A stretch of 64,000 bases of DNA from Escherichia coli (GTDB taxonomy: Bacteria; Pseudomonadota; Gammaproteobacteria; Enterobacterales; Enterobacteriaceae), in NCBI RefSeq assembly GCF_003334765.1, contig NZ_QOWT01000003.1. One strand, 5' to 3'. Below the pieces are notes generated by a model that did no database searches, had not been told where the DNA came from, and worked only from the letters and a program-made list of their open reading frames with translations. The position numbers and the translations under genes are program-made. Shown piece by piece: positions 46,458 to 51,059 of the stretch. How positions within the stretch are numbered: position 1 is the first letter of the stretch; every line of letters starts with the position of its first letter.

Positions 46458-47006
46458 TTATTTAAGCTGGGTAAATGCAGATAATCGTTTTCTGGCTTCG
46501 CGATTTGTCGCCTGCATCACCATCCACGGACTGAACGCCCACGGCGTGGCATCAATACCGTGTAATACATCTGCTAAATCACACCATTGATAATCCATCA
46601 CTTCATCATCATTGATCTGTAACGCACTAGTGGTGCGTGCGGCAAATACCGGACACACTTCATTTTCCACAATGCCACTCGGATCGGTGGCGCGGTAGCG
46701 AAAGTCAGGATAGATAGATTCAGGAGGCGTAATTTCCACGCCAAGCTCATAACGGCAACGGCGGATCACTGCGTCTTCGTTGCTTTCTCCCAGTTGTGGG
46801 TGCCCACAAACCGAGTTAGTCCACACGCCAGGCCATGCTTTTTTGCTCAGTGCGCGGCGGGTAACTAATAATTGTCCTTTGGCATTAAACAGCCAACTGG
46901 AGAACGCGAGATGTAAGCGGGTGTCTGCCGTGTGTGCGGCATACTTTTCCAGCGTACCCGTGGGAACTCCCTGTGCATTCAATAAAATGACGTGTTCCGT
47001 TTGCAT
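46458..47006 (-). CDS. idi: Isopentenyl-diphosphate delta-isomerase (type I, Nudix)
   Basis: 182 aa, [25 protein letters not shown]... Confidence 0.9.
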
Positions 47007-47255
47007 AATTTCTCACATGTAATTCTGATCACTCATCATTATAGATAATTGAAGAGTGAAATGATTAACCAAGTGAGCGTTTATCGACAACCGCCCGTTT
47101 TGAGCGGATGCCGACAGGTAAAAACCATTTAAAAAAGTAGCATCATATATTTGAAGCGACTTTCAATGGCCATTGCAACACAGTCAGAAATGACAGGAAT
47201 AGAGAGAGTAAAAAGCAACAACAGACTGAATATAGCGCGCATTAAAAAATTCATA

Positions 47256-48704
47256 TTATTCTCCATGCTCATTTTTCTTCAGCTTGCGCATCAGAAGCCA
47301 CATACGTACTGTCCTGACTTTTAAATCTTTATCAGAGACGGATTCCTTCACCAGGTCAGCATGATGCTGATAGCCATTAAAGAAGACGTTCAGCACAACG
47401 GCGCTAAGGGTTGCGAGCATAATGCCGCTATGTAGCAGCGGTTGCAGTACGGCCGGTAACTTAGAAAAGAAATCGTGAGAGAGCGTCGGAGTCATGCCAA
47501 CGCCGAGACTGATCGCCACAATATAGAGGTTGTAACGGTTGGTGGTGTAGTTACAGCGCGACAGAATTCGAATCCCTGTCGCCAGTACCATGCCGAACAT
47601 CACTAGACCAGCGCCGCCCAGCACAAATTGCGGAATGGAGGCTACCAGCACCGCCATTTTTGGCACCATGCCAAACAGGATTAATATAATTCCCGAAGAA
47701 ATACACACCCAGCGGCTATGAACGCGCGTCACGCTAACCAGGCCAACGTTTTGAGAAAATGACGTGTGGGGGAAGCTGTTAAACGTGCCGCCTATCATTG
47801 TCCCTACGCCATCGACACGCAGCCCGCGAATAATATCGTGCGAAGAGAGTTTACGACCGACTATTTCACCCAGTGCCAGGAACATCCCCATCGACTCGAT
47901 AAACACGATGATTAACACGGCAGTCATGGTCAGAATGGAAACGGGATCGAAAATCGGCATACCAAACGACATCGGCGTAACAATCGCAAACCATGAAGCA
48001 TCATGTAGCCCGGATAAATTGACTTCATTCATCATCCACGAAAGTAAAAAGCCAAATACAATCCCCAGTAATACGGCGACGTTGGACATAAATCCTTTCG
48101 CATAGCGAGTAATGAGCAAGATAAAAATTAAGACGGCAAAGGAGATACCTAAATAAACGGGATTACCATATTGCGGATTCCCTTTACCTCCGGCGGCCCA
48201 GTCAATACCCACCTGAATGATGCTAAGCCCGATAGAAGTAATAACCACACCGGTAACCAGTGGCGGGAATAAAGGCATCAAGCGACCGATAAGTGGCGCT
48301 AATAATGTGGTGATAAAACCCGCGGCGATAGTGGCACCAAATATCCCCAGCAGGCCGATATCCGGGTTCATCCCAATGGCTATCATTGGTGTTACAGCAG
48401 CAAAGGTCACCGACATAATCACCGGCAGGCGGATCCCCATAAAGCGGCCGATACCGATACATTGCAATAATGTGACGATCCCGCAGCAAAAGAGATCCGA
48501 GCTAATGAGCATCGCAATAGCTTCTTTTGAGAGGCCCAGTCGGTCACCAATCATAAGAGGAACAGCGACTGCACCTGCGTACATGACAAGGACGTGTTGC
48601 AGACCGAGTATGATCAGCTTTCCTGGTGATAATATGCGGTCAACCTCATCAGTTGGGCGGTCTTGCCCAGAAGATGAGGGAAGTTGGGAATCTATGGCGC
48701 TCAT
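47256..48704 (-). CDS. uacT: NCS2-family nucleobase (uric acid/xanthine-type) permease
   Basis: 482 aa starting MSAIDSQLPSSSGQDRP...; NAT/NCS2 transporter. The track ORF has a 43-codon upstream extension. Confidence 0.85.
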   Translation of the reverse strand: MSAIDSQLPSSSGQDRPTDEVDRILSPGKLIILGLQHVLVMYAGAVAVPLMIGDRLGLSKEAIAMLISSDLFCCGIVTLLQCIGIGRFMGIRLPVIMSVTFAAVTPMIAIGMNPDIGLLGIFGATIAAGFITTLLAPLIGRLMPLFPPLVTGVVITSIGLSIIQVGIDWAAGGKGNPQYGNPVYLGISFAVLIFILLITRYAKGFMSNVAVLLGIVFGFLLSWMMNEVNLSGLHDASWFAIVTPMSFGMPIFDPVSILTMTAVLIIVFIESMGMFLALGEIVGRKLSSHDIIRGLRVDGVGTMIGGTFNSFPHTSFSQNVGLVSVTRVHSRWVCISSGIILILFGMVPKMAVLVASIPQFVLGGAGLVMFGMVLATGIRILSRCNYTTNRYNLYIVAISLGVGMTPTLSHDFFSKLPAVLQPLLHSGIMLATLSAVVLNVFFNGYQHHADLVKESVSDKDLKVRTVRMWLLMRKLKKNEHGE

Positions 48705-49139
48705 CAGTGTTTCTCCTTTCGCCCGCCAGAGTAAAAAGCAACCGTTTACGTTAATGAAACTGTCTAAACACATGCTCGTGGAGTGCCAGTTTTTGCGAGG
48801 AAGGGGAGTTAGAGACAGGAATTGCGGAGGCAATCACATAATCGTGGTTAAACCACGAAAATGAGAAGAGAACCTGACAATGGAATTATCTGTAATTTTC
48901 TCATATTGATATTTCATTAATCATTCTGGCATGTCGCACTCTCGCATTTAATCGTTTTTATCTGGATAGCGCTCTTTTGATCGGCAATGTTGAAATAATG
49001 AAAGCGGCATAGATTGAGGGGCAATAATTTGAACTCAGTCGCAAAATTATAATTAAAACGGTCATGCTACCTAATATATGCCCGTTTATTGCATCGCGAA
49101 ATTTGAGAAGACATAACTCATTAAATGAAAGGGATGCAA

Positions 49140-51059
49140 ATGAATAAGTTTATTGCTGCTGAAGCTGCGGAATGTATAGGCTGTCATGCTTGTGAAATTG
49201 CCTGTGCGGTGGCACACAATCAAGAAAACTGGCCGCTGAGTCACAGTGACTTTCGACCGCGTATCCACGTTGTAGGGAAAGGCCAGGCTGCGAATCTGGT
49301 GGCCTGCCATCACTGCAACAATGCCCCTTGCGTTACGGCTTGTCCGGTTAATGCTCTGACTTTCCAGTCCGATAGCGTACAACTGGACGAGCAAAAATGT
49401 ATTGGTTGTAAAAGATGCGCAATCGCTTGCCCCTTTGGCGTCGTTGAGATGGTCGATACGATTGCGCAGAAATGCGACCTTTGTAACCAGCGCAGTTCCG
49501 GCACGCAAGCCTGTATTGAAGTTTGCCCAACACAGGCGTTACGACTGATGGACGATAAAGGGTTGCAGCAGATAAAGGTGGCCCGCCAGCGCAAAACGGC
49601 AGCAGGAAAAGCGTCATCAGACGCTCAGCCATCTCGCAGTGCAGCGTTGCTCCCCGTTAACTCGCGTAAAGGCGCAGATAAAATTTCAGCGAGTGAACGG
49701 AAAACCCACTTTGGCGAAATATATTGCGGGCTGGATCCACAACAAGCGACTTATGAGAGTGACCGCTGTGTTTATTGTGCCGAAAAAGCTAACTGCAACT
49801 GGCATTGCCCGCTGCATAACGCTATTCCGGATTACATCCGTCTGGTACAGGAAGGAAAGATTATTGAAGCGGCAGAACTTTGCCACCAGACCAGTTCCTT
49901 ACCAGAAATTTGCGGCAGGGTATGTCCACAGGACCGTCTTTGTGAAGGCGCATGTACTTTGAAAGATCACTCGGGCGCAGTCTCTATCGGTAATCTGGAA
50001 CGCTACATCACCGATACCGCGCTGGCGATGGGCTGGCGTCCCGATGTCAGCAAAGTTGTTCCCCGTAGCGAAAAAGTGGCGGTGATTGGCGCTGGGCCTG
50101 CAGGGTTAGGGTGTGCTGATATTCTGGCGCGCGCAGGAGTTCAGGTCGATGTCTTTGATCGCCATCCAGAAATTGGCGGTATGCTGACTTTTGGCATTCC
50201 TCCTTTCAAACTCGATAAAACGGTATTAAGCCAGCGGCGAGAGATATTCACCGCAATGGGAATCGACTTTCATCTTAACTGTGAAATTGGCCGCGATATT
50301 ACCTTTAGCGATTTAACTTCTGAATATGATGCAGTTTTCATCGGCGTGGGGACTTACGGGATGATGCGAGCAGATCTGCCGCATGAAGATGCGCCCGGTG
50401 TCATTCAGGCTCTACCGTTCCTGACTGCCCATACCCGCCAGCTCATGGGATTGCCGGAGTCTGAAGAGTATCCGCTGACGGACGTGGAAGGTAAGCGAGT
50501 CGTGGTATTGGGCGGTGGCGATACGACAATGGATTGTTTGCGGACTTCCATCCGCCTCAATGCCGCCAGCGTGACCTGCGCGTATCGTCGTGATGAAGTC
50601 AGTATGCCGGGCTCGCGCAAAGAGGTGGTTAATGCGCGCGAGGAAGGTGTCGAGTTTCAGTTCAATGTTCAACCGCAATATATCGCTTGTGACGAAGATG
50701 GGCGTTTAACTGCGGTGGGCCTGATTCGTACCGCCATGGGTGAGCCGGGGCCGGATGGTCGCCGTCGTCCTCGTCCGGTAGCGGGTTCAGAGTTTGAATT
50801 GCCCGCCGATGTTCTGATTATGGCCTTTGGTTTCCAGGCGCATGCCATGCCGTGGTTGCAGGGCAGCGGAATTAAACTCGATAAATGGGGCCTGATTCAA
50901 ACCGGTGACGTCGGGTATTTACCTACCCAGACGCATCTGAAAAAAGTCTTTGCTGGTGGTGATGCAGTTCATGGCGCGGATCTGGTTGTCACTGCAATGG
51001 CCGCAGGAAGGCAGGCGGCGCGCGATATGTTAACTCTGTTTGATACGAAGGCATCGTGA
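49140..51059 (+). CDS. ygfT: Fused ferredoxin-like 4Fe-4S / FAD-NAD(P)-binding oxidoreductase (GltD/DPD-like)
   Basis: 639 aa; N-terminal Cys clusters ([23 protein letters not shown]) followed by pyridine nucleotide-disulfide oxidoreductase domain ([14 protein letters not shown]). Confidence 0.85.

Follow-up and report, generated by a model that had tools for sequence, protein, structure and literature searches.

The 435-bp gap at positions 48705–49139 of the window, which is the whole 64-kb stretch of Escherichia coli DNA that was analysed, separates two divergently transcribed genes of purine catabolism. On the minus strand lies uacT (ygfU, encoding the urate/H+ symporter; 47256–48704), whose start codon is read as CAT on the plus strand at 48702–48704, and on the plus strand lies ygfT (49140–51059), with its ATG at 49140. 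Gene identities and the divergent orientation were taken from the RefSeq annotation. The initial annotation had described this interval, with the same coordinates, as an AT-rich, non-coding divergent gap, and this description holds: its G+C content is 0.391 compared with 0.515 for the whole window. A value of about 39% is normal for intergenic DNA of E. coli. The stretch was matched in 5331 of 5426 complete E. coli genomes and covered to at least 80% in 5187; the flanking genes in the matching genomes are annotated as ‘urate/proton symporter UacT’ and ‘formate-dependent uric acid utilization protein YgfT’, and no annotated feature lies inside the gap in these genomes. The gap sequence is identical in a K-12-derived strain, and the orientation of the window is opposite to the K-12 numbering.

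An in-frame ATG is located 15 nt 5' of the annotated ygfT start (49125–49139; MKGMQ-MNKF...) in Escherichia and Citrobacter sp. R56 and is missing in Kluyvera, Serratia oryzae and C. freundii; the conserved start is the annotated one, preceded by the Shine-Dalgarno sequence AAGGGA. In E. coli 23CRST036, an IS1 element replaces positions 46577–49129, comprising part of idi, yqfG/yqfH, uacT and nearly all of the gap, so that only 10 bp before the ygfT ATG are retained. In approximately 144 of the 5331 genomes with a match, coverage of the query is below 80%, which indicates that disruption of this region recurs in the species.

The length of the gap had been taken as a sign either of multiple regulator sites or of an unannotated small RNA or open reading frame. 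The first part of this expectation is borne out by footprinting and motif scans, which revealed two sigma-54-type promoters, two CRP-like sites, a dyad and a PurR box, while the second part is not supported, as detailed below. The length itself is typical of the locus and no anomaly, given that the sister sigma-54 control regions of the cluster measure 414 bp (actS-xdhA), 478 bp (ygeV-ygeW) and 321 bp (mocA-ygfK), and it is accounted for by enhancer-to-promoter distances.

For the cross-genus comparison, one genome per species was scanned with UacT for a divergent ygfT-uacT pair. Such a pair was also identified in a second Escherichia lineage, E. albertii (partial), Citrobacter sp. R56, C. freundii, Kluyvera and Serratia oryzae. 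When the gaps were aligned, 73 of the 435 columns proved invariant across five genera. Forty-one of these fall into 83 bp made up of both promoters, both CRP-like sites and the dyad, and the remaining 325 bp hold 30. Six conserved islands were distinguished across the five genera, namely the PurR operator, the uacT promoter, the two CRP-like sites, the dyad and the ygfT promoter. The centre of the gap at about 48930–49025 is least conserved and carries indels.

The sigma-54 promoter of ygfT, TATGCCCGTTTATTGCA at 49077–49093 on the plus strand, is already on record. A genome-wide sigma-54 ChIP-seq study lists the same 17-mer as site OS32, 36 bp from ygfT, where its peak score is low (3) and its motif score (4.5) is the weakest, so that sigma-54 occupancy is weakly documented here. 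Peak centre and motif coordinate are 3 bp apart; the latter corresponds to the motif end plus 11 bp, as checked via the ygfK entry. The -12 element TTGCA is canonical (GC at 49091-49092), and the -24 element is weak, with TG instead of GG, resulting in a PWM score of 2.6 in our scan. Across genera, the form nGCC-N8-TTGCAT[C]GC is kept (island 49077–49097). Transcription is predicted to start at about 49104, leaving a leader of 36 nt.

On the opposite side, no described uacT promoter was found in the literature searched. We newly predict a sigma-54 promoter, CTGGCACTCCACGAGCA (TGGCAC-N5-GAGCA), on the minus strand at 48773–48789, from a PWM match and from conservation. Its GG (48787-48786) and GC (48775-48774) are placed with the 10-bp offset that the sigma-54 consensus TGGCAC-N5-TTGCW requires, and uacT transcription would start at about 48762, giving a leader of 58 nt. 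The two predicted starts are then about 342 bp apart, with the promoters facing outward. The -12 element GAGCA is without the usual TT, and the PWM score of 7.2 is near the level expected by chance once per gap; the support for this promoter therefore comes from conservation. The sequence TGGCA[CT]-N5-nnGCATG is invariant in Escherichia, the two Citrobacter, Kluyvera and S. oryzae, with a 5-bp spacer that differs between them, and a combination of invariant GG and GC blocks with a variable spacer is the signature of a -24/-12 promoter. GG and GC are kept in six genera, including Pluralibacter, which has a different gene order. There, uacT lies away from ygfT and is preceded by TGGCAC-N5-AAGCA, by a TGTGA half-site at 54.5 bp and, upstream, by a dyad-like element, which is good evidence that the promoter of uacT forms an independent unit.

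Each promoter is accompanied by a CRP-like site. Site 1, TGCGGAGGCAATCACA at 48823–48838, agrees with the CRP core TGTGA-N6-TCACA at 8 of 10 positions and is centred at 48830.5, i.e., at -68.5 of the uacT promoter; the form TGnGn-N6-TCACA is present in all orthologues. Site 2, TTTGAACTCAGTCGCA at 49028–49043, likewise matches 8/10 and is centred at 49035.5, again -68.5, relative to ygfT. It represents a hybrid of the CRP/FNR family, in E. coli with an FNR-type left half and TCGCA as right half, and follows TTTGA-N6-TC[GA]CA in all genera, reaching 9/10 in C. freundii and S. oryzae. The distance from the centre of a CRP-like site to the -12 G of its own promoter is 55.5 bp here and 54.5-55.5 bp in every genus, and this spacing is fixed despite the lack of conservation of the intervening sequence. 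Similar sites were identified at the other promoters of the cluster: TTTTAACGTCATCACA at 54.5 bp from the -12 G of xdhA, TTCGAGCCGCCTCACA at 54.5 bp and a perfect 10/10 match, TGTGAGTTCATTCACA, at 84.5 bp upstream of ygfK, and the 9/10 match TGTGATCAACCCCACA at 64.5 bp, one helical turn further out, upstream of ygeW. All of them are located on one helical face. Given that only about 0.2 matches of at least 8/10 are expected per 435 bp in this window, a site in the same position at four promoters is far beyond chance. We infer that cAMP-CRP would bind the -68.5 sites to bend the DNA or to co-activate, and its presence at both promoters would render both genes glucose-sensitive. Urate degradation was reported to be glucose-repressed, and a Crp site has been recognised in the ygeV-ygeW gap. 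As a separate observation, the gap of E. coli strain 200112 is interrupted by an IS1, whose 9-bp target duplication, TGCGGAGGC, lies at 48823–48831 inside CRP-like site 1; this insertion puts about 0.77 kb between the uacT promoter and the dyad.

Between the two CRP-like sites lies the dyad TCTCAT-A-TTGATA (48899–48911), a candidate upstream activating sequence for YgeV, which is centred at 48905 and thus at -143 of uacT and -199 of ygfT. The uacT-ygfT, actS-xdhA and ygeV-ygeW gaps share the identical 12-mer CTCATATTGATA, and ygfK is preceded by the version TATCAT-A-ATGATA. A search for the pattern NNTCATAWTGANA gave a single occurrence in the 64-kb window and, within the 40-kb locus of the cluster, occurrences exclusively in the four sigma-54 control regions (approximately 90 kb overall), a count that is partly circular since the pattern was derived from these same sites. 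Independent support for the dyad is that other genera conserve it and that Pluralibacter gergoviae has it as well. In S. oryzae (TCTCATAATGAGA) and in Kluyvera (TCTCACAATGAGA) its palindrome is perfect, and in P. gergoviae it is found in the regions upstream of ygeV-ygeW, ygfK and uacT, with a distance to the -12 G of ygeW of 224 bp in comparison to 221 bp in E. coli. The distances of 118-221 bp between dyad and -12 G at xdhA, ygeW, ygfK, ygfT and uacT, together with this recurrence, are as expected of an enhancer. Across genera, the dyad lies at a nearly fixed distance of 127-138 bp from the -12 G of uacT, whereas its distance to that of ygfT varies from 119 to 220 bp without clear helical phasing, which suggests that it may serve mainly uacT. 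A weaker second dyad-like element, AATCATTCTGGCA, is present at 48919–48931, 20 bp from the main dyad; the block AATCATTCTGG is kept in Escherichia, Citrobacter R56 and S. oryzae, AATCATTATGGGA (11/13) is present in Citrobacter R56, and secondary sites 20-21 bp from the main dyad also occur at xdhA and ygfK.

No sigma-54 activator other than YgeV is encoded in the cluster, and the Pluralibacter orthologue of YgeV possesses Sigma54_activat and HTH_8 domains. The occurrence of the dyad at the sigma-54 promoters of the cluster, together with its recurrence in Pluralibacter, makes it a likely enhancer and a likely binding site for YgeV; in the literature searched, neither a YgeV binding site nor binding data were found. 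The iModulon assigned to YgeV comprises ygfT, uacT, xdhABC, ygeWXY-hyuA and ygfK-ssnA-ygfM-xdhD. Expression of ygfT is cited by others as being lower in a ygeV mutant, and urate strongly induces this gene.

Some further symmetric elements were rejected. The palindrome TCGTGGTT-A-AACCACGA at 48842–48858, our first enhancer candidate, is perfect but specific to this E. coli lineage, being absent from the second Escherichia lineage, E. albertii and the other genera, and is probably not functional. For the inverted pair AAAATGAGAA/TTCTCATATT, conservation of the left arm is confined to E. coli. Within yqeC, about 165 bp upstream of yqeB, there is a perfect dyad, TCTCACATTGAGA (L002 20477–20489, outside the window); it was not retained as a further sigma-54 control site, as no convincing -24/-12 motif is present downstream.

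It is conceivable that the elements at -68, the dyad, or both serve other proteins than CRP and YgeV, for example IHF or another bending protein at -68, or an unrelated activator or repressor resembling ArcA, Fur or Nac at the AT-rich dyad. The CRP-like sites match at only 8/10 positions, site 2 being a half-site hybrid, and an ArcA-consensus-like sequence, ATTAATGAAATATCA (11/15; 48907–48921, minus strand), of which about 0.07 are expected per gap, extends over the right arm of the dyad. The ygfK dyad TATCATAATGATA, moreover, shows a loose resemblance to Fur-box hexamers. However, no match to the IHF consensus was found in the gap, including both -68 sites, and conservation extends to both half-sites of each CRP-like element, as expected if a dimer binds. 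The 9/10 and 10/10 CRP sites of ygeW and ygfK share the helical face, and the record of glucose repression and of a Crp site in ygeV-ygeW points in the same direction. The dyad, in turn, tracks the sigma-54 promoters of this cluster across genera, with YgeV as the sole sigma-54 activator encoded there. We therefore consider binding by other proteins unlikely, while it deserves to be kept in mind.

A second alternative concerns the direction of uacT. Only ygfT might be sigma-54 dependent, with uacT being transcribed from a sigma-70 promoter and the TGGCA...GCATG sequence representing the site of another regulator or a part of the leader. This is in line with the published sigma-54 ChIP-seq data, which contain a single site in the gap, on the ygfT side, and no peak at the uacT-side motif (weak evidence against the predicted promoter), and with the non-canonical -12 element and a raw PWM score within chance expectation. 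Against it, exactly the GG and GC at the correct 10-bp offset are conserved around a variable spacer in six genera, one of them with a different gene order, and no sigma-70-like promoter was detected in our scan of the gap. In addition, the YgeV iModulon shows uacT co-varying with the sigma-54 operons, and the spacing of its CRP-like site is that at accepted sigma-54 promoters. A purely sigma-70-driven uacT thus appears to be rather improbable, and we infer that uacT starts at the predicted sigma-54 promoter.

A hidden gene for a small RNA or a small protein is hardly credible: the gap is longer than a minimal promoter pair needs and contains several open reading frames of 20-35 codons, but an Rfam scan of the gap with a permissive E-value yielded chance-level matches to eukaryotic snoRNAs and leaders only, a scan for terminators and sigma-70-like promoters found none, the predicted RNA folds no better than shuffled sequence (z of -0.66 and -0.55 on the two strands), none of the 20-35-aa frames is kept outside close Escherichia relatives, with starts lost or stops gained in E. 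albertii, Citrobacter, Kluyvera and S. oryzae, and the centre of the gap is its least conserved part. These three alternatives overlap with one another.

Among the regulators proposed for the gap in the initial annotation, sigma-54, PurR and CRP returned matches or CRP-like matches, whereas the consensus sequences of FNR (TTGAT-N4-ATCAA) and NtrC (TGCACC-N5-GGTGCA) were not matched in the gap at thresholds of at least 8/10 and at least 9/12, respectively. A scan of the gap with the NarL consensus gave nothing above background. An entry ygfU/ygfT in a PhoB ChIP-chip data set was dismissed as a site of the gap, because its PhoB-box-like motif ATTGCAATAATGTGACGA is located at 48461–48478, 234.5 bp inside the uacT coding region.

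The PurR operator-like box, ACGTAAACGGTTGCTT, is positioned on the minus strand at 48736–48751 in the uacT leader, at about +12 to +27 of the predicted start. With a PWM built from 27 ChIP-defined sites (training scores 12.1-25.1), it scored 19.1, the best value among the 128,000 positions of the 64-kb window on both strands, and it differs by one mismatch from the 16-bp consensus palindrome ACGNAAACGTTTGCNT. The second-best match in the window is the known gcvT operator AAGAGAACGATTGCGT at 29298–29313 with a score of 18.4, which serves as an internal positive control, yet is part of the training set. The second Escherichia lineage and Citrobacter sp. R56 carry the identical box, and in E. albertii it reads AGGTAAACGGTTGCTT. 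C. freundii, Kluyvera and S. oryzae lack it, so that three of the five genera are without it. In a PurR ChIP-chip study, a ‘ygfT-ygfS’ region was maximally enriched, with a log2 ratio of 2.08 in the presence of adenine, and was assigned by the authors to a motif within the ygfT coding region. This intragenic motif, GGGCAAGCGATTGCGC at 49417–49432, has a PWM score of 14.2 and thus ranks below the box. The enriched region corresponds to about 48861–49897 of the window, and the box lies about 110-130 bp beyond its edge. The motif coordinates of the ChIP-chip study seem to be offset by 19 bp from the numbering used for the sigma-54 ChIP-seq sites, for both the ygfT and the ygfK sites.

A published PurR site, AGTTAAACGATTGCGT, is located upstream of ygfK in the mocA-ygfK gap (L002 21823–21838, just outside the window). 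The same gap also carries the perfect CRP consensus TGTGAGTTCATTCACA and tandem dyads. PurR may therefore act on several operons of the cluster.

We hypothesize here that enhancer-dependent sigma-54 control of the urate branch of the purine-catabolism cluster is exerted from this gap in both directions, a reading that we regard as probable. According to this model, YgeV would assemble at the central pair of dyads, and DNA looping would bring it to either closed complex, about 143 bp away in the case of uacT and about 199 bp in the case of ygfT, so that one enhancer would serve both directions. A protein of the CRP family at -68.5 of each promoter could provide the bend or contact that IHF supplies elsewhere and tie expression to cAMP. 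PurR, bound to hypoxanthine or guanine, would block the import of urate when salvageable purines are plentiful, exerting a veto on the transporter only. A more far-reaching version extends this arrangement to the whole cluster: all five sigma-54 promoters would have a CRP-family dimer at -68 or whole turns further out, where IHF is usually found, and a YgeV enhancer of the form T(C/A)TCAT-A-(A/T)TGA(G/T)A, with one enhancer firing uacT as well as ygfT and PurR vetoing the transporter only. This generalisation is possible, and we put it forward tentatively. If true, it would describe a compact device with three inputs, namely urate or a related signal, cAMP and purine sufficiency, and would provide the first binding motif for YgeV.

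Divergent sigma-54 regions with a shared or central enhancer are familiar from hyc/hyp and zra. The gaps hycA-hypA (controlled by FhlA), zraP-zraS (ZraR) and ygeV-ygeW likewise separate outward-facing units, with activator sites 100-250 bp upstream and gap lengths of 300-480 bp. The promoters of hycA/hypA, zraP/zraS, ygeW and ygfT are all included in the sigma-54 ChIP-seq table. In contrast to hyc/hyp and zra, the uacT-ygfT region has ChIP support at one promoter only, the -24 element of ygfT is unusually weak, and the activator gene ygeV is not adjacent but about 25 kb off the gap. Furthermore, an IHF-like site is missing, and a CRP-like site occupies the usual ‘bending’ position.

The prpR-prpBCDE region of Salmonella and E. 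coli depends on sigma-54, PrpR and cAMP-CRP, which leads to glucose repression. The urate genes resemble it in combining a specialised catabolic sigma-54 promoter with glucose repression, the role of CRP at the urate genes being predicted. In the urate cluster, all five promoters have a CRP-like site at -68 or displaced outward by one or three turns; to our knowledge, such a fixed position of CRP has not been described for prp. In Clostridiales, a predicted sigma-54 regulon of DioR comprises dpaL, ygeW-ygfK-ssnA-ygeY, yqeB and the purine permease gene pbuX. It is similar in that an enhancer-binding protein is predicted to control the same pathway together with a transporter under sigma-54. It belongs to another phylum, and the DioR motif is described as distinct from others. 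With regard to the PurR box, operators downstream of the start are present in purB and in the autoregulated purR, where the bound repressor would block initiation or early elongation. The uacT box is similarly a 16-bp ACGnAAACGnTTGCnT palindrome placed after the start site. In contrast to these cases, the target promoter of uacT would be sigma-54 dependent, and the gene encodes a catabolic urate importer and not a biosynthetic function.

The gap is thus ordinary in type, a densely packed two-way control region with several previously unannotated sites, and its description is a useful and unsurprising annotation of a standard enhancer-dependent control region. New as annotation are the predicted sigma-54 promoter of uacT, the dyad shared by the operons of the cluster as a putative YgeV enhancer motif, the fixed position of the CRP-like sites and the predicted PurR box. 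Gut bacteria that remove urate are candidates for the treatment of gout and hyperuricaemia, which makes the anaerobic urate pathway of E. coli medically interesting, and the regulation of this pathway has barely been described. The fixed CRP-like sites would explain its repression by glucose. The map of sites presented here makes the regulation of the pathway testable and shows strain engineers which sites to remove and which to keep.
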